A stretch of 64,000 bases of DNA from Octopus vulgaris (taxonomy: Eukaryota). The stretch is from the NCBI GenBank assembly GCA_951406725.2, contig OX597816.1, positions 60,450,001 through 60,514,000 on the forward strand, given 5' to 3'. How positions within the stretch are numbered: position 1 is the stretch's first letter; each line of letters starts with the position of its first letter. The position numbers and the translations under genes are program-made. The notes below the pieces were generated by a model that did not search any database, had not been told where the DNA came from, and saw only the letters and a program-made list of their open reading frames with translations. Positions 3,505 to 59,889 of this stretch are shown here, one piece after another.

Positions 3505-3740
3505 TCATCATCATTGTTCGACCGTGGTCGAGACAATGGAATTTACTATGTTACGCCAGACTTCACGGTCCATCATAGCATTACGGGGGTCCTGTTGCTG
3601 GATGCCTGTATCCCTGGAGATTACATCAGGGTAGGAGAGTGTGCGCCCTCTGGTATTGCGAGTAGATGGCTTCCAGAGGAGAAGAGTAGAAATTACTTCT
3701 TTTTCAGCTCTACAACAATGTCCAGCAAACTGGACTCTCC
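3505..3740 (-). mobile_element. 3' end of an RTE-like LINE with (TGA)n tail
   Basis: Minus strand ends ...AMMDREVWRNIVNSIVSTTVEQ followed by tgatgatg, similar to the DRxxWR C-terminus of RTE-clade ORFs. Confidence 0.55.
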
Positions 3741-3780
3741 TACTACTACTACTACTACTACTACTACTCCTACTCCTACA

Positions 3781-3817
<37 letters not shown>

Positions 3818-4334
3818 GCTGTGGAACAGGCACGTGGATTTCAGTTATTATTGTTGTTTTCGTCCCGTGTTACAGCTTTGCGTGCAGATTTTTGTTGTAC
3901 TAACTTGTCAATAAGAACATTATTTTCATTATTATACTCCTTACAGCAGTACCACTCCTTCTATTTATGAGGACAAGGGCCAGATAAAGAACAGAGGGGA
4001 CCGGCTATGCTTGTCACAAATAAAAATCAAAGAAAACAACTTAAAAATGCTACAGGAAAAGCCTGAAGAGTGGAACACCGCAGGTGAAAGGAAGAGCTTT
4101 CTAGTAAGGAACCAATTTCCTTTGAAAGAAGGCCTATCTTTAGTGGAGAGGAGTCTGTCTTGTGAAAGTAAGCTCACCTTAAGTGATGTAGACTTGGAAT
4201 TAATTTCACAGCTAGAAAAAAATACAATAGTGAACGAATAGGAAATGTGCAGGAATGGTTCAAACGAAGAGCTGGCCGCATTGGAGTTAGGATCGAATAA
4301 CAGCAAAAACTATAACAAGAAAACTCCCAACCAC

Positions 4335-4625
4335 GTAGTTTTGGGTTCAGTCACACTGCTTGGCAATTTGGGCATGTGTTTTCTACTATAGCCCCAAGTC
4401 GTCCAAAGTCTTGTGGATTTGGTAGACGGAAACTGTATGGAAGCCCATCGTACATATATATATATATATGTATATATATTATTCTATGTGTGTTTGTGTG
4501 TGTGTGTGCTTGTGTCTGCCTTCCCACCACTTGACAACCGATGTTGCTTTGTTTACGTCTCTGTAACATCAGTTCGACGACAGAGGACGATAGAATAGGT
4601 ACCAATCTAGAAATAAAACTAAATA
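4335..4625 (+). mobile_element. SINE family B, degenerate, with internal (TA)/(TG) microsatellite
   Basis: gggttcagtcacactgcttggcaatttgggc...ttggtagacggaaactg...ttgacaaccgatgttgc. Confidence 0.75.
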
Positions 4626-4630
4626 ATAAT

Positions 4631-4681
<51 letters not shown>

Positions 4682-4911
4682 TATAAGGATGAGATCGTTA
4701 TTTAAATACCGATCTTATCAGGTGGCCAACATGGGAATAAAACCTTCAAAGGTAATAATTATTATTAAAATTATAATTTAGGGTATCTGAGAGATACCAC
4801 CACGCTGGAAATAGCAGCCAAAACTTGACTCTAAAACGACATTAAATGTTCATACAGCACCAGGAGAGAAGACTAGAAACAAAATAAACTAGCAAAAACA
4901 ATTACTGGATA

Positions 4912-4970
4912 ATTCCAGATCCCGGATTTCTGACTTTGCATAAGAAATGCTCTGCCTTCATCAGTGGAAT
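4912..4970 (-). ncRNA. Type I hammerhead ribozyme motif (left arm)
   Basis: Minus strand: auucca-CUGAUGA-aggcagagcauuucuuaugcaaaguca-GAAA-uccggga-UC^-uggaau; 6-bp helix I. Confidence 0.7.
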
Positions 4971-4991
4971 ATACTCAAATAGCACATAAAT

Positions 4992-5060
<69 letters not shown>

Positions 5061-5158
5061 ACATGCGAATGCTTACATATACGAGCGTATACATACATAT
5101 ATATGTATTCGTATGTTGTATATATATATATGTCTGTATTTATGTGCTATCTGAGTAT

Positions 5159-5217
5159 ATTCCACTGATGAAGGGAGAGCATTTCTTATGCAAAGTCAGA
5201 AATCCGGGATCTGGAAT
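5159..5217 (+). ncRNA. Type I hammerhead ribozyme motif (right arm)
   Basis: attcca-CTGATGA(5165-5171)-agggagagcatttcttatgcaaagtca-GAAA-tccggga-TC^(5211)-tggaat; helix II weaker than in the left copy. Confidence 0.65.
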
Positions 5218-5734
5218 TATCCAGTAATTGTTTTTGCTAGTTTATTTTGTCTCTTTGTCTTCTCTCCTGGTGCTGTATGAACATTTTATGTGTTTTAGAG
5301 TCAAGTTTTGGCTGCTATTTCCAGAGTGGTGGTATCTCTTAGATACCCTAAATTATAATTTGTATATATAAAGCAAGCTGGCAGAATTGTCAGCAAGCTG
5401 GGGCAATGGTTAACGTCATTTCGTCCATCTTTATGTCCTGAGTTCAAATTCCGCCGAGGTCGACTTTGCTTTTCATCCTTTCCGGTTCGATAAAATAAGT
5501 GCTAGGTAATCGACTTATAGCGTGATGCATGCATATCTAATATTCATTCTAACAATTACGACGACAAGAATTCCAGTTGACCCGATCAACGGGACAGCCT
5601 GCTCGTGAAACTAACACTCCACAGACACGCCTATCCTTCCTAGGGGGATTCAGCGTGATACAGAATGTGACAAGGCCGATATATGTTCGTGCGTGTATAC
5701 ATGCATATGTACATACATATATACATGCACACAT

Positions 5735-6340: not shown

Positions 6341-7176
6341 CATACGCACGCACGCACACTTACCAGCCTGTACAAAGGGACTATAAATAGCATCATAGTC
6401 TATCGACAAGTAAATAAACAAGATCCAGAAAGTCACTGAAATGCAACAATGCCGTTGAATTTGTGATCAACGAACTGGTAATTCAATATATATCCTCCTT
6501 CTAATTAAGAAACCACTTACCTATCGTCACCTCATCATTACCTGACATTTTCAACGTGTTTCTTTGACATGCTAGAAATAGCAGCTAAATCTCCCTCAAC
6601 TCACTCTAAACGGGGAATGGCATTTGATAATGTAGTTTTGTATGTATTATATCTGAAAATATTGATTGGTCAGTCAAGGCTGGCATGCCTTCGATTCTAG
6701 CAGCCTGATCAGAGCTGATCTAGCTCTAAATAACAAGTTAACAAGAGAGCCTCTATATGGTCGTATGCCCAGTTAGAAATGGCTGCCAAATTTCTATCAA
6801 ATTCCACCCTTCTATTTTGAAAGAAGAAAGATCCCGTTGGATAATCTAACCTCTATAACACTTTTGATAAGGAAAGACAGGATTGCTATATTTGGATCAT
6901 CATTGATCATGGACTTGCTAGATCAGCTCTGACCCGGGGGACACACAGCCACATACAACTATTCTACTTTTAGTTTAGGCTTGAATCAAGATTGATTTTA
7001 GACTTAAATGATATCAAAGGAAAATAGCTCGAAGAACCCTTTTTGCATTGTAAACACAGATAGAGCAAGATCTCACAAATGTAATGTAGTGATGTCAAAA
7101 GCTTTAGCCAGCATCATTTATCCAAGCAATTTGTTAACAAAGCTTCATTCTGTTAGTGTTTAATATATCTAAAAGC

Positions 7177-7830
7177 AAGGCAGCGAACTGGTAGATTCGT
7201 TGGCACACCGGACAAAATGTTTAGCAGCATTTCGTCCGTCTCTACATTCTCAGTTCAAATTCTGCCGAGGTCAGCTTTGCCTTTCATCCTTTCGGAGTCG
7301 ATAAGATAAATATCAGTTGAGCACTGGGTCGATGTAATCGATTTACCCGTTCCCCGAAATTGCTGGTCTTGGGTCAAAATTAGAAACCAATATATCTACA
7401 AGCAAGGCTGCGAGATGGTAGAATCGTTTGCGCACCGGGCAAAAAATGTTATCAGCATTTCTTCCAGCCTTACGTTCTGAGTTTAAATTCTTTCATCCTT
7501 TTGAGATAGGTAAAATAAGTACCAGTTGAGTTCTAATTTCGATATAATCGACTACCCTCCACCCCACAATTTCAGGCCTTATGCCTATAGTAGAAAGAAT
7601 GTTTCTAAAAGCATAGTAGCGAGATGGCAGAATCCTTAACACGCCAGTCTAAATGCTCAGTGGCATTTCTTTGGTCGTGATTTTCTGAGTTCAAATGATG
7701 CCGAGATTGACTTTGCCTTCCATCTTTTGGGGGTTGTTAAAATAAGTAAAAGTTGGGCACTGGGGTTAATGTAGCCAACTTACCTCGTCCTCTAAAATTG
7801 CTGGCCTTATGACATAATTTGAAGCTAATA
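7177..7830 (+). mobile_element. Three consecutive diverged SINE A copies
   Basis: Heads at about 7177, 7404 and 7615, each preceded by a tcta(a/c)aagca motif. Confidence 0.8.
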
Positions 7831-9014: not shown

Positions 9015-9625
9015 CTTATTTCTTTATTGTCTACAAGGGGCTACACACTGAGGGAACAAACGACAGACACACGGATTAAGTCGATTATATCGATCCCAGT
9101 GCGTAACTGGTACATATTTAATCGATCCCGAAAAGCACGAAAGGAAAAGTCGACCTTGGCGGAATTTGAACTCAGAACGTAGCGGCAGACGAAATACCCA
9201 TTTCTTTATTACCCACAAGGAGCTAAACATAGAAGGGACAAACAAGGACAGACAAACGGATTAAGTCGATTACATCGACCCCAGTGCGTAACTGGTACTT
9301 AATTTATCGACCCTGAAAATATGAAAGGCAAAGTCGACCTCGGCGGAATTTGAACTCAGAACGTAACGGCAGACGAAATACCGCAAAGCATTTCGCCCGG
9401 CGTGCTAACGTTTCTTATTTCTTTATTGCCCACAAGGGGCTAAACATAGAGGGGACAAACTGATTAAGTCGATTACATCGACCCCAGTGCGTAACTGGTA
9501 CTTAATTTATCGACCCTGAAAAGATGAAAGGCAAAGTCGACCTCGGCGGAATTTGAACTCAGAACGTAACGGCAGACGAAATACCGCAAAGCATTTCGCC
9601 CGGCGTGCTAACGTTTCTGCCAGCT
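9015..9625 (-). mobile_element. Head-to-tail trimer of SINE family A
   Basis: Three similar units (9015-9200, 9201-9413, 9414-9625), each with gtcgacct(c/t)ggcggaatttgaactcagaacgta. Confidence 0.9.
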
Positions 9626-10142
9626 CTGTCTGGACAGCTGCGAACACCTGTTTTTGCCTCAATAGGCAGATGCTTAGACATATACAAAAAGATCTAGTAC
9701 AGAGAGACAACAGGGTAACGCCGTTAGTTGGAGAGGTTTGAAAGGTGAAAGGGGAGGGTAAAGTGTAGTGTCAGAAAGAAATAGGGGACGCTAAGCTAAG
9801 AGAAGATAATATGAGTGAGTTAAAGCACTTGTGAACATGACAGGAGTGAACACGTAGAAGACAAAGAGACAATTGAGAAACAAAAAGCCAAAACTGAAAA
9901 ATGAAAGAATTGAAAGAATTGAAAATATGGAAAAAAATGACTAAAAGTTGAGATAGTATGAAAGGGTGAGATTTTAATAGATTACATGAACTGTAAAGAG
10001 ACCCTCGGAAATCGTTTAAAATTCTAGAAAGTTTTTCAGAAAATTTCAAAAATTTCTCAAAATTTTTCAAAACTTTCCCCAAAAGTCTCTGGGACAATAC
10101 AAAAATTGTCACGGTCTGACGGTTTTAAGATAGATAGATAGA

Positions 10143-12340: not shown

Positions 12341-12651
12341 GAATGACGTGTTGTCACCTTGGCTCCGAAGGTAATCGTTTATTTTGACTATTTATAGCCC
12401 AATTTTTGTGTACATTTTTGTAAATAAGTTGTGTAAGGCACCCAACTTTCGTTTGAGTGCTTTTCCAAGGGAGGAATTCGCCCCTAGGGGCAGTTTCAAC
12501 CCTATTTCATTTCTGTAATTTTCTTCTCGACATTAGAAAATGTCAAGAAATTTTTATTGTAGAACGCTGGTCGCGTTCTTTTATTGACCAGCATTTTCCT
12601 AGTTTGGAAGCACTAGGAGAAAAAAAGAACGTACACACGCCAAGTGCAAAC

Positions 12652-14372
12652 ATGAATATCGGTGAAATGAACGCTGCAACCACGTGCGGTAACAGCCCTG
12701 TCACCACCGCCACCACCACCACTAACAACAGCAACCACGAGACTAATACTGCTACCACCACCACCTCCTCCACCACCACCACCACCACCACCACTACCAC
12801 GACCAACATAAATGATAAAAATAAAACTCACACGAAAACTATTGACAAAAACAACAGCAACAACAAGAACAACAATAAAAATGAACTATCTAATAGTGAA
12901 GATGTTAATACAAAAAAATCAACAACAGTAAATTTCGCTGACACTCTTCGCCAGAAGAAGGAAATTGTAACATTTACAAATGAAGAGCTCATAGAAACAA
13001 GAGCTCTCTTTACAACCCGTGGACAAGATTTAGTGCTGCATACACCTCAACACATAAAGCAAGAAATAGAAAATAAGACAATTATAAATAAAATTATTAG
13101 AAAAAACAAAAAACTAAATGAACAGATTACAAAAACTGATGTAGAAAAATGCTTAAAAAACATAATGAAAGAAAAAGAATATATAAACTGGGGTCCCCAG
13201 TTTAACACAGTAGTGGTCCGCTTCCCTAACCAGGAAGTGGCAAAAGCTCACTCTACTGAGTCTCTGGGAAATGATGAAATCATCATGGTCCCATACTATA
13301 AAAACCAGAGAGTGAGTCGAATCACTATTAAAAATGTACCTCCCGAGCTTCCTAACAAATGTATAACAGGGGCAATCTGTTACCATTTAAAAAATATCAA
13401 CATTTTGGAGACCGCCGTGTACCCTGGCGACATTTGGGGTGGGAAGACAATAGTGGTGACCATACAGATTGAGGGGGCCTCTATCGAGAGCCTACCGGAT
13501 AAGATCCACTTGGAAAATGTGGCAGAAGGCAAAAAGCCTAGATGCTACAAATGTGGCAGCCCCGAACATTTAATTGCCAAGTGCGATCTGGTACAGAAAA
13601 AACAAGAAAGAACAAATCAGAAAACAAATAAAATCCCTTTGTTGCCAACACCAACACCAACACACTCAATTATAGAACAATGCCAAAAAAAAACAACAAA
13701 CCAGCAAACAAATCCCAACAACATCACCAAGAAAAGAAACAGTACCAACACAATCACCGTTGACTTCACAACCAATTAAACATGTTGAATCAACAAAAAA
13801 TAGACCAACACCCACACCCAGGATGACAATTAAAAAGACAGAAAACAACACAAACACCGCACAAAACATCAACAATTTATACAAGCATACATAGTAATGC
13901 AAATGCTTTGCCTCTGCCCCATACTGATACGTCGGACGACGAAAGTTCGACGGAATTGCAAATAGCCACAGGGGGTAAAAGAAAAAGATCCAAAAAATCC
14001 ACCAAACAAGGAAGTAAAGCAGGGAGATATCTAACACAGGACAACATCCCCCTAGACAATCAAAAAAGTAATGAACCAGTAAAACCACACACACAACTAA
14101 CTGCAATAGACACAGACAATAAAGAATTAATGGACTACATCACATCCAACATGGTCATCTGTGAAGATGACTTTAAGACAAACAATCATCCGCACACCAC
14201 ACCACGGAAACACATCAGAATTTTACACATAACACAAGCACAACACTACATACTGAAAACAATATTTCCGAATGCGGTAGGCGGGTATCAACGATACCTG
14301 TCGAAAAAACTATACAAACACCTCATCAAAAACAATACAATAGAAGAGGAAAAAATGAAACTTTTAAAATGA
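12652..14372 (+). pseudogene. Tx1 copy 1 ORF1 (zinc-knuckle protein), frameshifted; segments 12652-13779 and 13908-14372
   Basis: CYKCGSPEHLIAKC knuckle, Thr/Asn-rich N-terminus, C-terminal block homologous to 20517-20795; first ATG at 12652. Confidence 0.8.
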
Positions 14373-14437
14373 GTAAGTGACCTCCCTTCTTGCTTCTTGT
14401 CTCTTCTAATGTAGTGTGTAAAACACAATTTTCGTAA

Positions 14438-17400
14438 ATGTCAAGTATGCTTAAATTAGGTTGTGTGAATGCGCGTGGCTTGGCGTCGGCTTGGAAGCAA
14501 GGTTACCTTCTAAACGACATCAAGTCACTGGACGTGGATATAGTAGCTATCAGTGAAACCAGACTCAGTAAGCCGCGGGCCCTCGAGTCCATGTTTGGCA
14601 ATCAATTTGACATTTATTTTTCTCCCTGTCTGCCGAACATGGGTGGTGGAGGTACTGCGGTGCTTTTTCGAAAGAGTCTAAAGGTAAAAGTAAGAGCAAT
14701 ATTCCTAGACCCGGAGGGTAGGCTGGTTGTCTTGGACGTGGATGGCAGATATGGGTGTGCATTCCGTCTGATGGCAGTTTATGCACCGTCCTTAACGGGT
14801 CGGGCGGATTTCTTCAGACGTCTAGAGGTTTTCCTGGGTACGTCTAGACCTTTACTGTTAGTAGGGGATTGGAACGCTACCTTGGACACGCATCTAGATT
14901 ATGTGGGAAGGGATAGGAATAGAAGGGGGTGTAAGAGCCTCAAAGACCTGCTCAGACGTTTCCATTTGTCTGACAGGTTCCGACTCGACCATCCGAACGT
15001 GCCAACGTGGACTTGGACAAACCGCGTCGGATCGTCGAGATCTTATCTAGATAGAATTCTATGCAGGACAGCGGATAGGGATAGTGTAGGATGTCCACAA
15101 TTTAAAATAGTCAGCTACACAGATCACAAATTTGTTACGTGTACGCTCGACTTAGATAAAACACATAGGCAGGGTCCCGGTTACTGGAAACTGAACACGT
15201 CGCTGTTAGCGCGACAGGTTTACAGGAACCGGATTAGCGAGTTAATTAAGAGGGCGCTGACGGGAGCGGTCGTTAACAACCGCTGGTGGTACGCCCTGAA
15301 AATGACAATAAAATCGGAATCAATTAGGTTTAGCAAGGAATTAGCGATAGAACGAAATAGGGTAGAGGGAGACTTGGTTAAGAAACTAGAAGAGGCACTT
15401 ACCACTGGCAGCGCAACCAACGTGCTGGCTGCGAGGATGGCCCTCGACCAACACCTCAACGCCAAGCACGAAGGTTGCGTCGTCAGAGCTAAAATGCGTG
15501 CCTTAAGGAAGGAAGGGATCGAAGCTGCGCGAGAGGCCCGGGTAGCGGAGGCGCAGCGTGGCAACAGAGCCACCATTCGGTCTCTAATAGATCAACAGGG
15601 ATGCAGTTTACTCGAACCCGAAAGGATGTGTGAGGCCTTTCAACAGCACTTTGCTCGACTGTTTGGTGCGAGTGGTGGGTCGGAACGCGGGATGGATTTC
15701 AGTGCCTACCTGACCGACCTGCCGCGGCTCTCGGCAAGAGAAGCGGAGTGTTGTGAAAGTCCCATCACAGCCACTGACGTGTGGGATGCGATGGCGGGCT
15801 GCGCGAGGGATAAGTCGCCTGGATTGGATGGTTTACCCTACGAGCTGTATTGTCGAATGCCAGACTTGTTTGGCGACCTCTTGGCATCAGTCTACTGCAA
15901 CTGGCAACAAAACGGGAGAATCCCCGGTTTCGTGAGCCGAGGTGCAGTGACGTTGCTGAAGAAAGACCCAAACAAGGGGAATTTTATAGATAATTTCAGG
16001 CCCATCACTCTGCTCAACGCAGATTTGAAAATTTTGGCCAAAGTAATAGCCGAGAGGTTGGCGCTTGTCATTGGTAAACTGGTCGACAGGGCGCAAACAT
16101 GCGCCGTGCCGGGCAGAACCATACATGACAACCTCCATCTGATGCGCTACATTGTGGACAGGGTAGTTAAGGATCCTGGCATGGGTGGGGCGCTGATAAA
16201 TTTGGATCAGTCTAAAGCCTTCGATAGGGTCGACTATCGGTACTTGGCGGCCGTCCTCAGGGCGGCTGGCTTCGGTCCCGTCTTCCGCGGTTGGATCGCT
16301 GCCTTGTATAGCGGCAGCCGATCGGTGATTCGGGTGAACGGTCACCTGTCGAAACCGTTTGACATCACGCGTTCGGTCCGTCAGGGGTGTCCACTGTCGG
16401 CGCTTCTATATGTATTGACTCTCGAGCCGCTACTGCGGAAGCTGGCGACACTGAGGGGCATCCCACGGGAACTGGGTTGCGGGACGAGCGTGTCGGCATA
16501 TGCGGACGATGTCACCGTCATAGTGTCGAGCGACAAACACATCAAGATGATAGGCGAGACACTAAGAAAATACGAAACGGTGACGGGAGCAAAGATTAAC
16601 CCGGAAAAGTCAGTGGGTTTGCTACTCGGCACCTGGAGAAGCAAACCCATGCCATCCGACTGCGGCTCAGTAGTGGGACGCTGGACGGACGGACCGGTTA
16701 AATTGCTCGGGGTCTGGTTCAGTCCGGACCTCCAAATGGATAAGAACTGGGACGAGATCACGAGTAGAGTGGTCGCTCTCAGCCAAACATGGGCCGAGAG
16801 AAAGCTGTCTCTAAAAGGCCGGGCGGAGGTGGCGAACGCGTACATCGCATCCGTCATCGATTACCGCCTGACCGTCGTACCTTGTCCCGACGCCACCATC
16901 ACCAAACTGGAACGCATACTCTTCCGCTTCCTGTGGAAGGGTGGCGTTCCGATGGTGAGGAAGTCCATTTGCTGTCAACATCCGTTGAATGGAGGACTGG
17001 GCATGTCGTGGTTGATGATGCGCAGGCATGCGCTGAGACTGCGACATCTCTGGAAATTCATCGACGACGGTGAACAGGTGTGGGCGCCGTTTGTGAGGCG
17101 CGACTTCCCGCAGCTCGTCTCACTGACCGAACTGCAAACGTGGATCAAAAAGAGACCGAAACTGGGCGATTGGCACCGAGAGTGTCGCCAAGCTCTACAG
17201 CAGCTCTGCCGACCGGGGTCAAACTTGTGCAACTTACAAACGACTAAAGCGTTCTATAGAGGACTAGTGGAGGGGAGGTCCGACGACACACTCGGGGCAA
17301 ACCTGGGCGTCGACGAGGAATTCCTAACCCGCCTGTTCAGGACGACGTTCGGGCTGGGGCCTATGGATAACTTCCAGAAATCCCTGGCTTGGCAGTGCTA

Positions 17401-17689
17401 TCGAGACGCACTACCTGTTCGAGAGAAGAGCTACAGACACGGTTCGAAAACCATCACCGGACCGACCTGCCCGAGATGCGGTCAGAGCGACGAAACCGTT
17501 CTGCACGCACCCGTGCAGTGTCCAGATATTTCAGAGCTGTGGTCCTTCGTCGAACAGCTGTTGTCACGTGTAGGTCGGGCTCGCCTATCGGCCGAGTCTA
17601 TCGTGAATATTGTTCCACCACCTTCATTTAAACGGGAAGGGAAAACGGTTTTCGTTACGCTGATGGCTATGGCGAAAGAATGTGTGTGA
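14438..17689 (+). CDS. Tx1 copy 1 ORF2: APE endonuclease, reverse transcriptase and zinc finger (1083 aa; premature stop, homologous frame continues to 17887)
   Basis: NARGL, SET, GDWN, TDH (APE); SPGLDG, NFRPITLLN, KAFDRV, RQGCPLS, YADD (RT); CPRC..H...C; TGA at 17687 corresponds to TGG in copy 2. Confidence 0.93.
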   Translation: MSSMLKLGCVNARGLASAWKQGYLLNDIKSLDVDIVAISETRLSKPRALESMFGNQFDIYFSPCLPNMGGGGTAVLFRKSLKVKVRAIFLDPEGRLVVLDVDGRYGCAFRLMAVYAPSLTGRADFFRRLEVFLGTSRPLLLVGDWNATLDTHLDYVGRDRNRRGCKSLKDLLRRFHLSDRFRLDHPNVPTWTWTNRVGSSRSYLDRILCRTADRDSVGCPQFKIVSYTDHKFVTCTLDLDKTHRQGPGYWKLNTSLLARQVYRNRISELIKRALTGAVVNNRWWYALKMTIKSESIRFSKELAIERNRVEGDLVKKLEEALTTGSATNVLAARMALDQHLNAKHEGCVVRAKMRALRKEGIEAAREARVAEAQRGNRATIRSLIDQQGCSLLEPERMCEAFQQHFARLFGASGGSERGMDFSAYLTDLPRLSAREAECCESPITATDVWDAMAGCARDKSPGLDGLPYELYCRMPDLFGDLLASVYCNWQQNGRIPGFVSRGAVTLLKKDPNKGNFIDNFRPITLLNADLKILAKVIAERLALVIGKLVDRAQTCAVPGRTIHDNLHLMRYIVDRVVKDPGMGGALINLDQSKAFDRVDYRYLAAVLRAAGFGPVFRGWIAALYSGSRSVIRVNGHLSKPFDITRSVRQGCPLSALLYVLTLEPLLRKLATLRGIPRELGCGTSVSAYADDVTVIVSSDKHIKMIGETLRKYETVTGAKINPEKSVGLLLGTWRSKPMPSDCGSVVGRWTDGPVKLLGVWFSPDLQMDKNWDEITSRVVALSQTWAERKLSLKGRAEVANAYIASVIDYRLTVVPCPDATITKLERILFRFLWKGGVPMVRKSICCQHPLNGGLGMSWLMMRRHALRLRHLWKFIDDGEQVWAPFVRRDFPQLVSLTELQTWIKKRPKLGDWHRECRQALQQLCRPGSNLCNLQTTKAFYRGLVEGRSDDTLGANLGVDEEFLTRLFRTTFGLGPMDNFQKSLAWQCYRDALPVREKSYRHGSKTITGPTCPRCGQSDETVLHAPVQCPDISELWSFVEQLLSRVGRARLSAESIVNIVPPPSFKREGKTVFVTLMAMAKECV

Positions 17690-18826
17690 TGGACGCGTTT
17701 GAAAGGACTGTAAACAAACACCTTCCTCTCTGGTCAGTCTCTCGTCAACTTTTTCAAGTACCACTTGAAAAGGAGGATGAGAATAGAGAGGAAGGCTTTG
17801 TCGAACGAATGTTTTAATAAAAAGTGGGTAAAAGTGGCAAAAATGGTCAGTATGAAAGACAACACTATTTTAAGCATAAATCTGTAACCAAAAGAGACAA
17901 CGAGAAGTAAGGCGACTTACTCATGTGTTCTTTTTCGAATTGTCTGAGGTGACCTTGGTCTTTTTTGTAGGTTTTTCTTTCCAAGGCTACACCTAAACTG
18001 TGAACTTTATATATATATATATATTGCTTTTTTATACACCACACAACCCACAGATCCCTATTGATCAAACGTTTTTTTTTGTGCCCCACCCACCCCACCT
18101 CGAAAAGAAAAAATTCTACATTGTATTTCGTCCATTTTTATTCTGTGTTTAGCCCTGTGTGGCTACAATAAAAAGTTATCTATCTAGCTATCGATCGGTC
18201 TCTCTGTCTGCCTGTCTGTCTGACGTTCTGTCCACCTACTTAAGTACGTACGTACCAACCTAACTATCTACCTACCCACCTACCTATCTATATATCTATC
18301 TATCGATTGATCGAGCTGCCTATGTATCTATGTACCTATTTACCTACATCTATACGTCTATCCATCCACGCATCCATTCAAATATCAATCTGTTAATCTA
18401 TATTCCCATTTAGGTTGATATATACATTGCATGAGAAGTATTTAGACGGTTTCTGTTGCGCTCCTGCGACCGGGTGTTGAGGTTTATTGCTCGGATCCTC
18501 TACGGTTAATCGTTGGAATTTTCCGAGCCCCCTCCCCACGCCCCCCGTTTCTCAGCGCGCTTTTTTTTCGTCATATTCCTTCAATATACGATGCCTTACA
18601 CCTGTTACACATATTTTTTTCCTTTTTTGCCACCTGGGCGTGGATCTATATATTAACCCTTTTACATGTTTAAAACTTCTTGTTGTCAAATATTTTGTTT
18701 TAATCGTTGTGCATATTCATTCACTAAAAAACCTGAGAATTATTCACGTAGAATTCCGCCCCTGTATGGGCGAAATTACCAGAAACTTTCAAAACTTTAG
18801 TTGGTTCTTCTTAGCCATTTTTCATT

Positions 18827-20795
18827 TTGAAAATGGCAACTAGAAACCACGTGGCTAGCCCGCCAGTCATGCAGAACGGTAGCGAAACACTATTGCTACC
18901 ACTAGCTGCTAAGCCTCGCAGCTTGAACACCGCTGTCACCACCACCAACAACAACAGCAAAACTAACGTCGCGACCGAAGACATTAACTTAGATTTCCCC
19001 CCACTCCCTACACCACTTGTCGATGATAAAAGGACGGAGAAAGGGATTTCAAAAACGAATACAGACGAAAACATGAATGCCAGCACCACCACCATCACCA
19101 CAAACAACAACAACAACGAAATGGGCACAAAGCCGCCTACCAAAGACAACACCGCCAACACCAACACCACTACTACGACTTCAACTGCTACAACTAACCC
19201 TTCTGCTGCTAACACCGCCAACACCAACACCACTACCACGACTTCAACTGCTACAACTAACCCTTCTGCTGCTAAAACGAATTTTGCGGATGTGACAAAT
19301 CAAAAACGAACAATTGGAAAATTCACCACACAGGAAATAAACCGCACAAAAGCACTCTTCACCAAAGAAGGAGACAAATTGCACCTTCACATTCCACAAC
19401 ACATCGTGGAAAACACACAAAAAAACAATAATTTATAAAGTAATAAACAAGAAAACAAGACGAACAGAAAATGCACCACAGGAAAAAATTGAAAAATGCC
19501 TTCGTCCTGCATGGGACTCCAAGGAATATATCAGTTGGGGAAATAAATTTGGTACAGTCCAAGTACGTTTCCTCAACGAAAATTTAGCAAAACGTTTTTC
19601 CACATTGGAGCTGCATTCGGACGACTTGGTAATGATACAAGTCTATTTAAACAAGAGAGTCACGAAAGTCCAAATAAAAAATGTACCACTTGAAGTCGAA
19701 ACACAATGGTTAGTCTCTGCCATCTGCTTTGAAATGACAGAGACAATGTCAGAGACAAACATCCTTGAACTCGCTGTTCTAGGAGAGAAAGACTATGTGG
19801 GAAAATCAATCGAATTCCTTCTTCATTTGGATGAAGCAGCAAGAGAGAAGATACCCACCACTATAGAACTGCCAGGAGGCTACAAACTTTATGTAGTGGT
19901 AGAGGGCAGACGACCACGCTGCTATTTGTGTGGAAGCGAAACACACTTGAAAAAGACGTGCCCAACCACTGCACACCAAGAGCAACAATAACAACCACTA
20001 CCACAACCAAAGCACTCCGGAAAAAAAGCTCTACTACCCACACCACCATCAACACAGAAGACGACAAGAGAAGCACACCAAGCTAATCCGTCATCAACCA
20101 AAAACCACTCAACACCTGAAAAAATACCAACACCACCAACAACAGCAAGAACCAAAGGAACAGAAAAACAAAGAAAACACACAAAAACTGACCCCCCATC
20201 CCTTATACCGCACTCAACACACACAAACACTCAACAACCAACAACAACGAAAACAACAACACAACCACTTACACAGACATACATAGAAGCCTACAACATA
20301 CCCCTACCCCCTACTGATTCCTCAGAAATTTCGTCGGAAGACGAAACCAGTGAGGAATGGCAAATAGCTACAAAAAGAAGGAAAATAAAGAGCAGAAACA
20401 CAACCAAACCAAATGCAAACACGAACAAAGCAGGGGGAAATACATCTCCCGAAGACATTTCAAAACCCAACACAAACAACAGCCACACCAACACCACAAA
20501 AATATATACAGCAAACATGCTCACAGCTATAGACACCAAAAACACAAATTTGATGGAATACATCCAATCAAAAACAAACATAACAGAAGATGACATAAAA
20601 ACAAACAATCACCCATACACAACACCACCAGACCACATCAAAATATTACACATCTCCAAAAGTCTACACCACACACTCAAAGGCATTTTCCCCAGTGCGG
20701 TTGGTAAATGCCAAAAATATCTCACAAAGAAACTGTACTGGGATCTCCTCGAGGACAAACCAAAGGAGGAGAAAGCAAAAACTTTCGAGCAGTAA
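18827..20795 (+). pseudogene. Tx1 copy 2 ORF1, broken by frameshifts and stops
   Basis: VVVEGRRPRCYLCGSETHLKKTC knuckle; segments 18827-19438, 19605-19991 and 20517-20795 match copy 1 ORF1. Confidence 0.8.
19148..19273 (+). repeat. In-frame 63-bp tandem duplication in ORF1 (NTANTNTTTTTSTATTNPSAA twice)
   Basis: Units start at 19148 and 19211. Confidence 0.92.
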
Positions 20796-20839
20796 GTAAC
20801 CCTCTGTTCCTTTCACTTGTATTCTAATTCATTAGGATT

Positions 20840-23800
20840 ATGATCAAGATTGGTTGTGTAAATGCGCGTGGCTTGGGGTCCCCTTGGAAACAAGGGTACC
20901 TCTTAAATGTCATAAAGTCACATAAGTTAGAAATCATAGCCATAAGTGAGACCAGACTCCACAATCCGCGGGCCCTAAAGACCATGTTTGGCGGACAGTT
21001 CAACATTTATTTTCCCCCTGTCTGCCGAGAATGGGCGGTAGTGGCACCGCGGTACTTTTTCGCAAGAGTCTGGATCTCAAAGTAAGGACAATATTCGTAG
21101 ACCCGGAAGGTAGACTGGTCGTCCTGGATGTCGACGGCAGCAATGGGTGCGCTTTTCGACTCGTATCAGTCTACGCACCGCCCTTAACAGGTCGGGCGGA
21201 TTTCTTTCAACGTCTAGAAGTATTCTTGGGAACGTCTCGTCCTTTACTCTCAGTGGGGGATTGGAATGCTACCTTGGACACGCATGTAGACTACGTGGGT
21301 AGAGATAGGAATAGACGGGGATGCAAATGCCTCGGAGACCTGCTCAGACGCTTTCAACTGTCTGACAGGTTCCGACTAGACCACCCGAATGCGCCAACGT
21401 GGACATGGAGCAACCACATCGGGTCGTCGAGATCGTATCTAGATAGGATACTGTGTAGGACAGTAGACAGAGATAGCATAGGATGTCCACAATTCCACAT
21501 AGTCAGCTACACGGATCACAAACTTGTGACATGTTCGCTAGACTTAGGTAAGACACTTAGGCAGGGTCCCGGATACTGGAAACTAAACGCGTCTTTCCCA
21601 TCGAGACAGGTTTTCAGAGACCGGATTAGCACACTAGTAAAGAGGGCTTTGACGGGAGCCATCATCAACAACAAATGGTGGTTTGCCCTCAAGAGAGCAG
21701 TAAAAGCAGAAGCGATTAGGTACAGCAAAGCACTAGCCATAGATAGAAATAGGGTAGAGGGTGAGCTAGTTAAGAATCTAGAAGAGGCAATTAGAAGCGG
21801 CATCGCATCTGACGTTTTGGCGGCGAGGTTGGCCCTCGACCAACACTTCAACGCCAAACACGAAGGATGTGCTGTCAGAGCTAGGATGCCTGCTCTAAGG
21901 AACGAAGGTGTTGGAGCCGCGAGAGAGGCCCGGGTGGCAGAGGCGCAACAGGGCAACAAAGCCACCATTCGGTCCCTGGTAGATGAACAGGGGCGCGAAT
22001 TGCTCGAGCCAAGTAAAATGTGTGAGGCCTTTCAGCAGCATTTTTCCCGACTGTTCGGGACGAGTGGAGGGCAAGAACGTAGGGTGGACTTCAGTGCCTA
22101 CCTACATAGCCTACCACGACTCTCGACAAGAAAGGCGGGGTGCTGCGAAGGTGCCATCACGGCGGCGGAAGTGCAGGACGCGATGGCAGAGAATGCTCGA
22201 GGGACAAATCACCGGGTTTGGATGGTCTACCCTACGAGATTTACAATTGTATGCCAGACTTGTTTGGAGATCTCTTGGCGGCGGTGTACTGCAACTGGCA
22301 GCAAAACGGGAGCATTCCTGGTTTTGTGAGCCGAGGAGCCGTAACACTGCTGAAGAAAGACCTAAACAAGGGAAATGTAATAGATAACTTTAGGCCCATC
22401 ACTCTGCTTAATGCAGACTTGAACATTTTGGCCAAGGTGCTAGCCAAGAGGTTGGCGCTTGTCATCGAGAAACTGGTCGACAAGGCGCAAACATGCGCCG
22501 TGCCAGGCCGGACCATCCATGACAACCTCCACCTGATGCGCTACATCATAGACAGGGTAGTTAACGAACCTGGCATGGGTGGGGTGCTGATCAATTTGGA
22601 TCAATCGAAAGCTTTCGATAGGGTAGACCATCGATACTTGGAGGCGGTCCTCAGAGCGGCTGGCTTCGGTCCCGTCTTCCGCGGCTGGATAGCCGCTTTG
22701 TACAGAGGCATCCGTTCGGTAATTCGCGTGAATGGACATCTATCGAGACCCTTCGACATCGCACGTTCGGTCCGTCAGGGATGCCCCCTCTCGTCGCTTC
22801 TATACGTATTGACTCTCGAGCCATTATTGCGGAAGCTGGCAACTTTGAGGGGCATCCCGCGAGAACTGGGATGCGGGACGAGCGTGTCTGCATACGCGGA
22901 TGACGTCACCGTCATAGTGTCTAGCCACGAGCACATCGAGCAGGTCGGCGAGACACTGAAAAACTACGAAGCGGTGACAGGAGTGAAAATCAACCGTGAA
23001 AAGTCAGTGGGCTTGCGACTAGGAACCTGGAGAAGCAAGCCCATGCCGTCCACCAGCGCCTCCGTCATGGGACGCTGGACCGACGGCCCGGTTGAGTTGC
23101 TCGGGGTCTGGTTTGGTCCGGACCTCCAAGTGGAGAAGAACTGGAACGAGATAACGAGTAGGGTGGTCACTCTCGCCCGGCAATGGGCCGAGAGGAAACT
23201 GTCCCTAAAAGGTCGGGCGGAGGTGGCGAACACGTACATCGCGTCCGTCATCTACTACCGCCTGACCGTCGTACCTTGTTCCGACCCTACCATCACCAAA
23301 CTACAACGCATTCTCTTTCGCCTCTTATGGAAAGGATGCGTCCCGATGGTCAGGCGATCCAGTTGCTGTCAACACCCGTTAAAAGGAGGGCTGGGCATGC
23401 CGTGGTTGATGATGCGCAGACACGCGCTGAGACTGCGACATCTCTGGCTCTATGTAGACGACGGTGAACAGGTGTGGTCGCCGTTTGTGAGGCACGCTTT
23501 CCCGCAGCTCGTCTCCATGGCCGAACTGCAGTCGTGGATCAAAAAGAGGCCGAGGAAGGGCAAATGGCACCGCGAGTGTCGCGTTGCTCTCAAGCAACTC
23601 TGCCGTCCTGGGTCGACCTTGAGTGACTTCAACACAACCAAAGCATTCTATAGGGGTTTAGTGGAGGGGAGGTACGACGACGAGCTCGGGGCGAACCTGG
23701 ACGTCGACGAGGAGTATCTGACCCGCCTGTTCAGGACGACTTTCGGGCCAGGGCCCATGGACAACTTCCAGAGATCCCTGGCCTGGCAGTGTTACCGAGA

Positions 23801-24278
23801 AGCGCTACCCGTTCGGGATAAGCTCTACAGACACGGCTCGAGAAACACGGGGCCGACCTGCCCGAGATGCGGTCAGAGCGACGAAACCGTTCTGCACGCA
23901 CTCGTGCAGTGTCCAACAATTTCCGACCTGTGGGCTTGTGTCGAACAACTGCTGTCACGTGTGGGACGAGTCGGTTTATCAGCTGAGTCTATCGTCAATA
24001 TTGTCACGCCTCGTTCCTTCAAACGGGAAGGAAGAGCTATTTTCATCATCCTTGTGGCTATGGCGAAAGAATGTATCTGGTGGACGCGTCTGAAAGGATT
24101 GGAGACAAATACTTTCCTCTCTGGTCAATCTCTCATCAACTTCTTCAAGTACCACTTGAAAGGGAAAGTGAGAGTAGAGAGGCAAGTTTTGTCTAGCGAA
24201 TGTTTTAAAAAAAGATGGGTGAATGTAGCAAGGATGGCACGTATGAATGACGAAGCCACCTTGAGCATAATCCTATGA
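20840..24278 (+). pseudogene. Tx1 copy 2 ORF2 with two frameshifts (about 21010 and 22190)
   Basis: ORF-track segments 20840-, 21031- and 22140-24278 align in order to copy 1 ORF2; YADD and CPRC motifs present. Confidence 0.92.
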
Positions 24279-35676: not shown

Positions 35677-36344
35677 CAAATTAAGATAAACAAAGTTCCT
35701 TTTTAATCTAAAATATACTCTCCTTCATTTTCTGCAATGCTCTTCCATCTATCTGCTAGACTTACGAGGCCCCTCTTCTAAAATTCATTTGCTCTTGACA
35801 AAAATACACCTCCAGTACTGTTCTCAGCTCATCTACAGAATTCATATTTTTTCCGTCCAAATGATTTTAAAGACTGCGGAATAGATAATAATCAAATTAG
35901 GCAATGTCCAGTGAATATGGTGGGTGGGGCATCGTTTCCCATTCAAACTACCCCAGCCTTTGGAATGTCATCCTCGCTGTATGTGGCTGAGCATTATCCT
36001 GATGGAAGGGCAAATTAAGATAAACAAAGTTCCTTTTTAATCTAAAATATACTCTCCTTCATTTTCTGCAATGCTCTTCCATCTATCTGCTAGACTTACG
36101 AGGCCCCTCTTCTAAAATTCATTTGCTCTTGACAAAAATACACCTCCAGTACTGTTCTCAGCTCATCTACAGAATTCATATTTTTTCCGTCCAAATGATT
36201 TTAAAGACTGCGGAATAGATAATAATCAAATTAGGCAATGTCCAGTGAATATGGTGGGTGGGGCATCGTTTCCCATTCAAACTACCCCAGCCTTTGGAAT
36301 GTCATCCTCGCTGTATGTGGCTGAGCATTATCCTGATGGAAGGG
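35677..36344 (+). repeat. Apparently perfect 334-bp tandem duplication inside the mariner
   Basis: caaattaagataaacaaag...tcctgatggaaggg at 35677-36010 and 36011-36344. Confidence 0.93.
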
Positions 36345-37200
36345 CACCTTTCGTCTTGAAACCAAAAATGGTTGTTTTTCTTCTAGCACTGACTTAAGAT
36401 GCTCAAGCTACACACATTAGATCTCTTTTCTCATCGTTTGGTTTGAGTTTAAAAGTTCAAAGTGGACTAAACTTTCATATTCCACCAAACTGATAACAAC
36501 ACTTTTTGTGGGTGAAAACCTTTAGCTTGGGGTGCCGTTGTTTCTCCTTTCCCTACAAACAGTCTTCGGCGCTTGACATTTTTTATAGAGAACCCATTTC
36601 TCGTCACCAGTCACTGTTCGGTCCAAAAAAGGTTCATTCGTAGGATGTAACAGCAAAGAAGACTACACATTCACTCTCTGCGCGAATTAAGACTTGGAAA
36701 GTTTGTGAGGAACCCATTGACCCAGTTTGCTGACTTTTCCGATGGCACGCAGGTATCGATGAATGGTTTAATGACCAAATTCAGGCTTCTCTGCTAGTTC
36801 CTCAACTGTTACGATGGAATTTTGTTCCACCAGGGTTTGCAGGACGTACTTGTTGTACTTTACAGATCTTTCAGGGCGTGGCACGTCGTCTAGTCTGTAG
36901 TTTCCGGCTCGGAATTTCTGGAACCACCATTGACACTGGCTTACGCTTATTGTCCAATCCCCATGTACTTCATTAATATTCTTCGCACTTTCTGTTGCAC
37001 TGTTGCCTTTATTGAACTCATAAAACAAAATATGCCGAATATGCTCCTTTTTCACTTCCGTCATAGCTTTGAAAAAATAACTGCTAAAATCGAACTGCAC
37101 TCTTCAAACACTTGCACTAAGAATAAGTACAAGGTAAAATTACTACCTGCTTTTACAGCAAGTTGATGCAGGTAGTTTATTCCGTCCTCCTCCGACATTT

Positions 37201-38979: not shown

Positions 38980-39190
38980 AATATCCTTTTCTACTCTAGG
39001 CACAAGGCCCGAAATTTTTGGGGCGGGGGCCAGTCGATTAGATCGACCCCAGTACGCAACTGGTATTTAATTTATCGACATCGAAAGGATGAAAGGCAAA
39101 GTCGACCTCGGCGGAATTTGAACTCAGAACGTAACGGCAGACGGAATACCGCTAAGCATTTTGCCCGGCGTGCTAATGTTTCTGCCAGCT
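38980..39190 (-). mobile_element. SINE family A, alternative tail (gggccttgtgcctagagtagaaaagg)
   Basis: Family A body with a different 3' end; the same tail occurs at 45185-45381(+). Confidence 0.85.
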
Positions 39191-41517
39191 CAAACCGCGC
39201 GTTATATATGGATGCATTTTTACTTTTTACTTTTTATATGGAAAAACCTATATTGTGTATTATACACGGGCAAATGCGTACAAATAAGCAAACGCAGATT
39301 TGAAACGGTGACAGTACGAGAAATAAGAACCTTATAGGGGATGCTGAGCGAAAGATTCTTATTTAGAAAATAATGGAAAATATCTTGCCATTCATTTATA
39401 TTTTCTCAGCTATTCTACAGACAAATTAAAGACTTTTACCTCAGCCATGATACAGTTCGTTTCACGACTACAAAGTTTCGGGTACGACCCCATGCAACTC
39501 ACTGGACAAGCATCTGTAAAAATACCCTTGGGTTGACCGAAACTTTAGAAGTGAAATATAATTGATGGTATCCGTAAAAAAGAACCCCGTCAGAGGAACA
39601 GTTTTCGTATTCCTAGACAGTAGACGTAAACGATCACTCGATTTAATACCAGCACCTGTAATTACTTATATGTTCTTACTGGGGTTATGCTGGTTCAGGC
39701 CAGGTTGCCAGCTTGAAGATAACTTCTCCCTTTACTCTCACTGTCTCAGAAGCCTTGAAAATGTCACAGCTGTAACCATTTTTTCTCTGACTGGACATTA
39801 CCGTCTCGAGTCCAAGAACTCAGAGAGCCGCTTACTCGGTTTCCATGACATTAAATGACCGAGACCGTAACATTCTTAATAGGGCGCCAGTCTGTTGTAG
39901 GGTCGCTCATTTACAACTGATTGGACTGGAGCAACGCGAAATGAAGCGTTTTGCGCAAAAAAAAACACCGCACGGTTCGGGAATCGAAATCACGATCTTG
40001 CGATTGTAACACTCTAATCACAAGGCAACAAGCCCTCACCTTTGTTTAGTTAACTTATAAAAGATAAACAAATGCATCTTAGCAATGTTCTAATTATTTC
40101 TTGATTTCATTTGTGTAATTCTCTGTTGCTATCAGTACAAATTCATAACAATTCCATAAGGGGACTAGTAGCAAAACAGGATATTTTTTTATCTTACATT
40201 TTTAATGTGTTTATTTATTGCATTGATACACAAAAATATCAGTCTTTTTCGGAGAAATTTTATACTTCACTGGTTCGTCTTTATCGACATTTAGAGGATG
40301 GAATTCAGAGTTTTCAGTGCAATATTTATTAGGTTTAGTAAATGTCTTGTGGTATTTAGTTCCCATTTCAAATACCACCTAGGCTGACATTTCATTTTGC
40401 CTTTCTGAGGTTGATGAAATACCTGTCAAGTACTAGAGTCGATGCAATCGAAAATATAGCTCCCACAAAAATTTGCTGGCTTGTCTCTAAGATATCATTA
40501 TTGGGGCAGTGGGTGGTAGAAATAGGAGAAAATCAAATAAAATACCTTATGGAACAATTATTGATTATATTCGTCTCCCACAAAGGAATGGTATCTGCAC
40601 TATAATAAAGAAGGCCGCTTATTAATTCATTATGAGTAGGAATAGTTTTAGTGGAGGCACATGGCCTAGTGGTTAGAGCAGCAGACTCGCGGTCGAGGGA
40701 TCGTGGGTTCGAATCTCAGTACCAGGCGATGTGTGTGTTTATGAGCAAAACACCTAAGCTCCACGCGGCTCCGGCAGAAGGTAATGGCGAACTTCTGCTG
40801 ACTCTTTCGCCACAACTTTCTCTCACTCTTGCATCTTGCAGCTCACCTGCGACGGACTGGCGTCCCTTCCAGCTGGGGAACCTATATGCCAAGGAAACCG
40901 GGAAACCGGCCCTTATGAGCCAGGCATGGCTCGAGAAGGAACATACTTGAATAGTTTTACTAAAGCAATTTTGAAATCTACACTGTCTAGCAAATTCTTA
41001 TAAATTCCAATCTTAAATTTTTTTATTGTAATTTTTTTTTATTATTTAATGTAAAATGTTTTATTTAATGTAAAAAAATTACATTATGTAATTTAATGTA
41101 AAATTTAATGTTTAAATTTGTATTATTGAAATTTAACTACACGAATCATCCAGAAAACTGATTTCTATTCATCGGGACATAGTATTTTTAACGTCTTACA
41201 TTTGTATCCCTTTTCTTCTACTGTTTCCTTGCAACAGTGTTCTCCCTCTTTTTTCCTTCCAGTCCACCTCTTCTTTGTTTATCACCTCTATTCCTATTAG
41301 TCTTTCTCCTTCTCTATCCTTATAACTTTTATCTTTCTCACTCTTACCCTTATCGTTTTTTGTTTGTTTGCTTTTTTCAACGACTTTTTCCTTTCGGACT
41401 TTGTTTCTTCTCTTTCGCACAAACTTTGTTTATAACCCTTCCCTCGTTATATCATCGTACTTATCGTTTTCCCTTCCATACCCCATTGTATTTACTTTCT
41501 TTCTTTGCAATGCTCTC

Positions 41518-43388: not shown

Positions 43389-43914
43389 AATTGAGCATTT
43401 ACCCTCGTGAGACAGAAAAAATGAAAAAGAAGTTGCCAGAAGACGGTTATGGAAATTGAACTCTGTACCCCTAGAAATACCGGTTAAGGCGGTGAGCTGG
43501 CAGAAACGTTAGCACGCCGGGCGAAATGCGTAGCCGTATTTCGTCTGCCGTTACGTTCTAAGTTCAAATTCCGCCGAGGTCGACTTTGTCTTTCATCCTT
43601 TCGGGGTCGATAAATTAAGTACCAGTTACGCACTGGGTTCGATATAATCGACTTAATCCCTTTGTCTGTCCTTGTTTGTCCCCTCTGTGTTTAGCCCCTT
43701 GTGGGCAATAAAGAAATAAGAAATACCGGTTAAGTGCGCTACCATTAGGCTAAACGACCTCTGAGAACAGCCACTGCTAAATTTAAAGTTATTATTTAGC
43801 ATTAAAATTGATGGTAAATGTTGTCGGGACCTTTTACCTTAAAATACAAGGTTCGATTTCCGTAGCCGCCTACTGGCAACTTTTTTCTCGTCTTACAAGA
43901 GTAAATATTCAATT
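43389..43914. mobile_element. Element with about 75-bp imperfect inverted arms and tRNA-like boxes, interrupted by SINE A (43487-43720) with a 16-bp target duplication
   Basis: 43389-43467 is the approximate reverse complement of 43845-43914; agaaataccggttaag at 43473-43488 and 43719-43734. Confidence 0.7.
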
Positions 43915-44855: not shown

Positions 44856-44931
<76 letters not shown>

Positions 44932-44944
44932 AATTATCATTATT

Positions 44945-45381
44945 GGCAGAATCGTAAACACGCCGGACGAAATACTTAGCGGTATTTCGCCCATCGTTAA
45001 GTTCTGAGTTCAAATTCCGCTGAGGTCGACTTTGCCTTTCATCCTTTCGGAGTTGATAAATTAAGTACCTGTGCAACATTGGGGTCGATGTAATCGATTC
45101 ATCCCTTCCCCCAAAATGGCTACCCTTATGGCAAATTTGAAACCATTATTCTTATTATTATCATAATTATTATTATCATTATTAGCAGAATCGTTAGCAC
45201 GCCGGGCAAAATGCTTAGGGTATTTCGTCACTTTCTGAGTTCAAATTCCCCAGAGGTCGACTTTGACTTTCATTATTTCGGGGTCGATGAAATAAGTACC
45301 AGTTACGCACTGGGGTCGATGAAATTGACTGGCCTCCTCGCCCCAAAATTTCGGGCCTTGTGCCTATAGTAGAAAGGATTA
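44945..45381 (+). mobile_element. Two SINE A copies within (TTA)/(TCA) repeats
   Basis: ggcagaatcgtaaacacgccggacg... and agcagaatcgttagcacgccgggc... Confidence 0.85.
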
Positions 45382-59065: not shown

Positions 59066-59889
59066 GTCAAGCAACACATACATACATGCATACATACATA
59101 CATACATACATACATACATACATACATACACACACACGTACATATAAATATATGTATGTGTGTGTGTGTGTTTGTGTCTAACGGTAATCTTTATCTCCAA
59201 CGTAATGTGGACGTTGTATTAGGACACTGAATATTGCGTTATTTACCTTGAGCGGATCTCTCATATGAACTTTCGGTGCATAAAATCACTCTTATTTATA
59301 TCGTTGACAGACAAGAGCCGTCTGCTACGTCCGCCGGAAATGTCAGATCACATGATTTCACCCTGTTTGGAGCTCCTCAGTGACAGACATCTTGTAAACA
59401 ATATAACTGCCGAATCTCCCGACAACGATATATAGAATATCAGTGTCTATTCAGGCATTGGTGTCGCAAGTAGCCAGTGGGCTAATTAAAAAGTAATTAA
59501 TAGCAACAATAGTAGTATTAATATTTAAAAAGACGATCTTTATCTTCAACGAAATGTGGACGATAATTCAGTTTTCTGTGTTCTAACACAACGACCATGT
59601 TAATTGTGAGATAAAGATTGCCTTTTGTTATTAACACCGTTTCTATCGCTATTAATTATACATACATACATACATACATACATACATACATACATACATA
59701 CATACATACATACATACATACATACATACATACATACATAAATGTGTGTGTGTATGTGTCTATCTCTCTGTGGGTGTGTATGTACGAATGTATGTATGTA
59801 TATATTTATATATGGTATCCTAGTAATGCATATACATTTTAACAGTTGATAACTCACTTAACTTTTGATTTAGATTTAACCCATAAGAA

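Follow-up and report, generated by a model that had tools for sequence, protein, structure and literature searches.

We analyzed a 64-kb window (64,000 nucleotides) of the Octopus vulgaris genome, a microsatellite-rich genome of 2.8 Gb, and focused on a foldback near one end of it. The original prediction described near-identical inverted arms of ~227 bp, extending over 4768..5361 around a TA-rich spacer. The arms were readily confirmed, since 4768-4994 (− strand) aligned with 5135-5361 (+ strand) with 7 mismatches and 2 one-base gaps (an identity of ~96% over 228 columns, and 218/225 in a second alignment). The inverted pair is thus real, but its extent and its spacer had to be revised: the insertion runs from ~4683 to 5361, the left copy reaching ~85 nt further outward, and 4995-5134 is itself repeat sequence, consisting of the internal (TA)n of the repeat unit and the segment upstream of that (TA)n. 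With this extension on the left, the structure is lopsided rather than a symmetric pair.

The two copies derive from a ~505-nt unit, and both are 5′-truncated. The left copy (4683..5105, −) comprises unit positions ~432-505 plus 1-334 and ends at an outer 3′ site, termed P2, whereas the right copy (5105..5361, +) ends at an inner 3′ site, P1. The stretch between P1 and P2 forms a one-sided tail of ~85-100 nt, which is present in the left copy (4683..4767, −) and missing from the right one. The head-to-head junction falls within 5096..5119, with the inner end of the left copy at 5105 and the start of the right copy between 5105 and 5119, and a 10-bp palindrome (5096-5105) closes the left copy, in which the (TA)n belonging to the unit (5002..5058) is expanded. 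Both flanks are microsatellite, with the target (TA)n/(CA)n tract on the left (4635..4682) and a TA-rich remnant after 5361 on the right, and no target-site duplication could be resolved. Directly after the foldback starts a copy (5368-5500) of a SINE-like repeat that is dispersed in both orientations, further copies lying at 2378-2591, 7175-7388, 9200-9626, 39001-39192, 43484-43717, and 44930-45143.

Each arm carries the predicted hammerhead layout, AUUCCA-CUGAUGA-27 nt-GAAA-UCCGGGA-UC-UGGAAU, with the core elements CUGANGA, GAAA, and UH in type I order. The hammerhead of the right copy occupies 5159..5217 (+), with a predicted cut at 5211/5212 (C17 at 5211), and a private C-to-G change at 5175 breaks the third pair of its helix II; that of the left copy occupies 4912..4970 (−), with a predicted cut after 4918 (C17) and an intact helix II base. 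Besides the layout in both arms, a motif scan of the window yielded a further plausible motif at 59380 and a weak match that looks like chance, and an Rfam scan of the window gave no hammerhead match at the foldback at E ≤ 1. In the whole genome, two exact core patterns had 187 and 517 matches versus 0 for reversed controls, indicating that the hammerhead pattern is not due to chance, and among the first 100 core matches listed of the 517, 14 lie in 7 divergent pairs within 1.5 kb. The core was intact in 86/104 copies, a count that is biased upward, as 50 loci had been chosen on the core.

The base of helix II had been flagged as noncanonical, with A opposite A. The two bases are indeed there, but they represent a variable 5′ bulge and a conserved inserted A before G12 rather than an opposed pair. 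The base after A9 was A in 67, absent in 17, G in 3, and C in 2 of 89 copies, and the extra A between 11.1 and G12 occurred in 98/99 copies, so that the pair 10.1-11.1 is not adjacent to G12. No description of this extra A was found in the accessible hammerhead literature, and it may figure in the work on Penelope hammerhead dimers (PMC5785218). Comparison of the subfamilies, three of which were seen, revealed that pair 2 of helix I changes from C-G (72/80) to A-U (22/24) in 104 copies, that an upper helix II pair changes from A-U (64/68) to U-A (21/21), and that the pair at the helix II base is G-C, G-U, or A-U (104 copies), whereas helix III is invariant and hence uninformative for covariation. 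These compensatory changes support helix I and both parts of helix II, and helix III is silent. Even by itself, the hammerhead is not the favored fold: the probability of helix I is ~0.005, and the monomer folds are weak, at −6.5 and −2.0 kcal/mol versus −12.1 and −11.0 kcal/mol for the best folds. The palindrome of helix III can form an 8-bp duplex of −9.9 kcal/mol. A weak monomer fold together with a palindromic helix III would fit cleavage as a dimer or with the assistance of a protein.

The foldback arm had 3067 first-look candidate matches in the genome, 40 of which were scored, and the family survey covered ~140 of thousands of unit copies. Within the unit, the hammerhead is followed by 150 nt, P1, ~100 nt, P2, and ~170 nt including the internal (TA)n, after which comes the next hammerhead. 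Head-to-tail dimers at two loci, L017 and L032, have a unit spacing of 505-546 nt and carry a hammerhead in each repeat, one L032 core having a change, and the longest stop-free sense frame was 115 codons (in one natural tandem stretch). When loci were chosen by the middle segment of the unit, 30/30 either ran on into unit sequence or were truncated, and no long arrays were seen among the copies examined. Thus, the foldback repeat is a self-contained, noncoding unit of ~505 nt that loops back on itself in tandem, in the manner of a retrozyme. We also considered whether the ribozyme cut sets the 5′ end of the copies, and this was not supported, as the 5′ ends of long copies, judged by eye, are scattered and several run past the upstream cut site. 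In many copies the CG of the helix III palindrome has become TG or CA, a pattern expected from CpG methylation.

A second, older type I hammerhead family is represented in the window at 59180-59658. It has a palindromic helix III, a unit of ~335 nt, and 1054 candidates in the genome. The copy in the window scored 28.7 bits with Rfam Hammerhead_1, below the cutoff, and it is again a head-to-head insertion with a tail on one arm, the tail of this family being 35-40 nt.

Non-LTR retrozymes are noncoding tandem units with hammerheads (PMC7229834) and have been argued to be nonautonomous Penelope derivatives (bioRxiv 10.64898/2026.07.22.740005). A noncoding tandem with one hammerhead per repeat is what we found at L017 and L032, the foldback itself not being tandem. 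As far as these accounts go, the octopus unit shares with metazoan retrozymes a low-GC, noncoding tandem unit with one type I hammerhead each and a preponderance of dispersed monomers. It differs from them in length (~505 nt versus 220-390 nt for published retrozymes; PMC7229834, bioRxiv 10.64898/2026.07.22.740005), in insertion ends that follow the Penelope two-site pattern, and in being known from DNA rather than from circular or abundant small RNA.

In endonuclease-bearing Penelope-like elements, the typical layout is described as an inverted, 5′-truncated copy with a tail on one side (PMC3846280, PMC8557442), and pairs of Penelope hammerheads lie 100-700 bp apart on opposite strands (PMC4209133). 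Therefore, the layout of inverted one-tailed ends with hammerheads paired on opposite strands is already published. The octopus copies have in common with the described Penelope-like insertions the head-to-head copy, the tail at one end, partial tandems, 5′ truncation, and AT-rich or microsatellite targets (PMC3846280, PMC8557442), and they differ from these descriptions in that the unit has no ORF and no resolvable target-site duplication, and in that the tail is ~100 nt in the ~505-nt family versus the published 30-40. Several structural features expected of a nonautonomous Penelope-type element were found, namely two alternative 3′ ends with a tail that may be present on one side, partial tandems, inverted 5′-truncated copies, and AT-rich or microsatellite targets. 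The hammerheads compare similarly: type I, a long helix II, a bulged base between 9 and 10.1, G10.1-C11.1, and a palindromic helix III suited to dimers are common to both, and the variable base after A9 has been described (PMC4209133), whereas the octopus motif is set apart from the hammerheads in the available text of that study by the extra A between 11.1 and G12, by a 3 × 3 internal loop within helix II, and by a helix I that is complete at 6 bp and predicted to extend distally.

The original prediction read the locus as a solo inverted pair of pLTRs associated with a Penelope-like element. The Penelope-type character was borne out, but the unit is noncoding, no examined copy is joined to a Penelope ORF, and the pair is asymmetric. 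The association itself was not observed among the loci sampled, either as DNA shared between the unit and GIY-YIG loci or as a Penelope ORF contiguous with the unit. A family search returned 6136 GIY-YIG candidates in the genome, where intact RT+GIY-YIG Penelope-type ORFs reach 781 codons. Within 30 GIY-YIG loci and 8 longer stretches from these 6136 candidates, blastn and tblastn detected unit similarity in TA/AAT runs only, with the exception of two separate unit insertions that lie in flanking sequence at L122 and L123. Searches for nearby ORFs with two protein queries placed fragments of Penelope ORFs close to 3 distinct loci among 110 of the family (a total that includes duplicates), in every case noncontiguous and on the opposite strand, and close to 0/27 further family loci. 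An autonomous Penelope-like element is defined by an RT plus GIY-YIG ORF between pLTRs, and the unit has none. Because no intact ORF was found linked to the unit, the source of its enzyme is one that we infer.

These data bear directly on the possibility that the arms are the terminal repeat (pLTR) of a coding, autonomous Penelope element, shed as a solo inverted pair. The hallmarks of the octopus copies match published pLTR ends, and full-length elements can be rare, so that they might have escaped a survey of ~140 among thousands of copies. Yet copies that continue past P2 or far upstream lead into a neighboring unit and never into an ORF (30 middle-segment loci), and no link was found between the unit and RT/GIY-YIG loci; we therefore consider it unlikely that the arms are pLTRs of such an element. 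Among the coding loci, L121 (G000:C16:20834500-20841500) belongs to a young family of Penelope type in which RT+GIY-YIG frames of 781 codons are numerous. An additional frame of 359 codons lies upstream, and 456-bp direct repeats seemingly contain a hammerhead-like motif with U3-A8; this two-ORF layout is unusual for the class. In L124, the inverted arm of a Penelope-type copy spans 766 bp and is 100% identical (1321-2086 and 3718-4483); here a member of a coding family has inserted head to head very recently.

To see how the copies end, we tallied 98 unique loci (110 loci minus 13 duplicates plus one chance find, one locus-edge cluster being dropped). Head-to-head composites numbered 37 and were the commonest composite form of the family. 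In all 30 that could be scored, one arm ended at P1 and the other at P2, with P1+P1 and P2+P2 pairs both at 0 (binomial p = 9 × 10−10 versus 0.5), whereas 7/37 were unscorable, one end fitting neither site. By comparison, the 73 non-inverted insertions had 28 P1, 29 P2, and 16 other ends. The same was found in a held-out set of 30 loci chosen by the tail, 27 of which were new: these contained 12 composites, and 9/9 scorable ones were P1+P2, the query here being blind to P1+P1. Pooling both sets, 39/39 scorable head-to-head pairs have one arm per site, a count of the one-tail rule for the octopus family. In the second hammerhead family, with tail thresholds set by eye, 11/12 composites had the tail on exactly one arm (1 unresolved; two untailed arms end early), and single copies were 11 tailed versus 8 untailed. 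A microsatellite lay within 30 nt of 27/28 P1 ends and 32/37 P2 ends, as opposed to 5% of sampled window positions.

An inverted arm could also arise without a second priming event if one cDNA folded back and primed itself, as in a published model (PMC3846280, as far as its text was available). The foldback offers several points in its favor: the 10-bp palindrome sits at the junction, the right arm is contained within the left, which makes a fold-back copy possible for this locus alone, and the two arms have 4 non-majority letters in common, one of them present in 3% of other copies. Each of these arms also resembles its partner more closely than it resembles any of 76 other copies, which together with the common rare letters points to one source lineage. 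Across the family, however, neither arm contains the other in at least 7/30 pairs (L003, L005, L015, L023, L040, L056, and L132), and the arms of L005 and of L040 have no sequence in common at all, which needs two separately templated pieces. Moreover, self-priming leaves unexplained why the second arm should stop at the other fixed site, and the junctions showed no excess of microhomology (by a profile method that anchored 34/37, ≥3 nt at 8/34 inner junctions versus a null of 18%). The arms were more alike than the family median in 20/25 pairs and not so in 5, which may reflect mixed templates. Taken together, the strict one-arm-per-site rule in two families and the non-overlapping arms favor priming on two strands over fold-back self-priming, and the latter appears very unlikely as the general route.

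Both 3′ sites are preceded immediately by a short hairpin. The one at P1 lies at 5331..5347 (+) in the right copy and at 4782..4798 (−) in the left copy (folding z of −2.9), and the one at P2 lies at 4688..4719 (−; folding z of −1.5). Between subfamilies, each shows a compensatory change, from A-U to G-C at P1 and from G-C to U-A at P2. For the whole structure, 94.6% of the cells pair and the covariation score was 0.164, versus 0.094 for shuffles and ≤0.060 for slid controls; in 5/30 of the alignment rows behind these figures helix II is misregistered, so that its counts are reduced. Double-changed pairs numbered 5 versus a shuffle mean of 5.7, which is no excess, and each double change is probably one event at the split of the subfamilies. 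In the RNAalifold prediction, helix I and the P2 hairpin were present together with a long-range helix around P1, and helices II and III and the P1 hairpin were missing. That long-range helix (alignment columns 145-290) has several one-sided, pair-preserving changes, encloses P1, and ends just before the P2 hairpin, and it may position the two start sites.

A close parallel is found in the Anolis Poseidon protein PAc, which, according to the accessible text of PMC11167929, cleaves AT-rich DNA on both strands and extends both, uses two internal RNA start sites that bound the tail, is a predicted dimer, and does not need hammerhead cleavage. The octopus family has in common with PAc that the tail lies between two start or end sites located downstream of the hammerhead, that the start region has a stem-loop, and that copying proceeds through an uncut hammerhead site. 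PAc is autonomous, and its start sites lie in an AC-rich stem-loop inside the ORF (PMC11167929); by contrast, the octopus sites each have a hairpin of their own immediately 5′ and are followed by a U/A-rich run, as read from sequence alone.

We reasoned that the foldback arose when two truncated copies of an abundant ~505-nt repeat were inserted head to head in one event, the repeat likely being a nonautonomous Penelope-type element copied in trans, and we give this reading a probability of about 0.75. A Penelope RT/GIY-YIG enzyme, a predicted dimer, would cut both strands of a (TA)n tract, and each cut end would prime one cDNA, at P1 in one case and at P2 in the other, on a template of uncleaved tandem or circular RNA. 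Both cDNAs would stop early and then be end-joined head to head, leaving the foldback as a by-product. It is in the RNA intermediate made from source copies that the ribozyme would be of use, probably dimerized through the palindromic helix III or assisted by a protein. Exclusive P1+P2 pairing is drawn from the genomic counts, since no difference in start site between the strands was seen for PAc (PMC11167929). The origin of inverted, one-tailed Penelope insertions is still open in the accessible accounts (PMC8557442, PMC11167929), and the literature searched contained nothing specific on this hammerhead family or on a two-strand priming account. What we add to the published layout is a one-arm-per-site count for two families, together with a covarying hairpin at each end site, the long tail, and the hammerhead core variant. 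The one-arm-per-site record is a useful trace of how such elements likely insert, the two short RNA hairpins are named targets for mutation, and a retrozyme-like unit is tied to Penelope-type integration.

More speculatively, the two covarying hairpins might each position one subunit of a dimeric Penelope RT/endonuclease, each insertion being primed once per site from opposite strands, while the palindromic hammerhead, active despite its extra core A, could join two templates. We regard this extension as doubtful; if it were true, the family would be a natural, countable readout of two-strand Penelope priming and would contain a new, tolerated variant of the hammerhead core.

Read-through of the foldback was predicted to give long dsRNA that competes with ribozyme folding, and in silico folding agreed with this: a 701-nt read-through RNA folds as one duplex of −452.7 kcal/mol (z of −44 versus 20 shuffles), in which the predicted probability of helix I is 0. 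Either strand contains one sense hammerhead only, the complement of which is transcribed first, and the hammerhead is thus predicted to be inactive in read-through RNA; with the two hammerheads on opposite strands, no dimer can form within one transcript. In RNA of another, related species, 323 of 12.9 million reads and 300 of 12.0 million reads fell on a family tandem, representing both strands in a library type unsuited to circles, and the one read-end pile, of 5 molecules, was not at the ribozyme site, data too shallow and from too distant a species for cleavage or editing. Such foldbacks, if transcribed, could supply dsRNA to ADAR or Dicer, a function that is possible but unsupported for this foldback. 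That the host has selected it as a regulatory hairpin, be it an ADAR or Dicer substrate or a ribozyme switch, is highly improbable: the duplex of its read-through RNA would be very stable, but dozens of unrelated loci show this layout as a signature of insertion, the arms have diverged, with helix II of the right copy disrupted by one of the changes, and no host exon was identified within the 64-kb window. The foldback locus is probably a neutral by-product of insertion. We give almost no weight to an assembly or long-read fold-back artifact, or to a MITE with terminal inverted repeats, because, although short-read contigs of 4 DNA runs included no independent contig across the locus, the two arms show 9 differences and terminate at distinct sites that are defined by the family, short-read contigs from more than one run contain arm-to-arm joints for other copies of the family, and most copies are single or tandem (73 non-inverted versus 37 inverted insertions) with asymmetric arms in the inverted ones, so that terminal inverted repeats are not a property of every copy.

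Elsewhere in the window, two adjacent non-LTR retrotransposons (12457-17689 and 18815-24278) each have an ORF1-like frame along with one for endonuclease-RT; the first element has an unbroken 1083-codon frame (Pfam Exo_endo_phos, RVT_1, and zf-RVT), and the second is frameshifted. An exact 334-bp tandem duplication at 35677-36346 (100% match) may be very recent or a duplication of the assembly. Finally, a 300-codon frame at 50123-51025 (−) presumably resembles a Tc1/mariner transposase.
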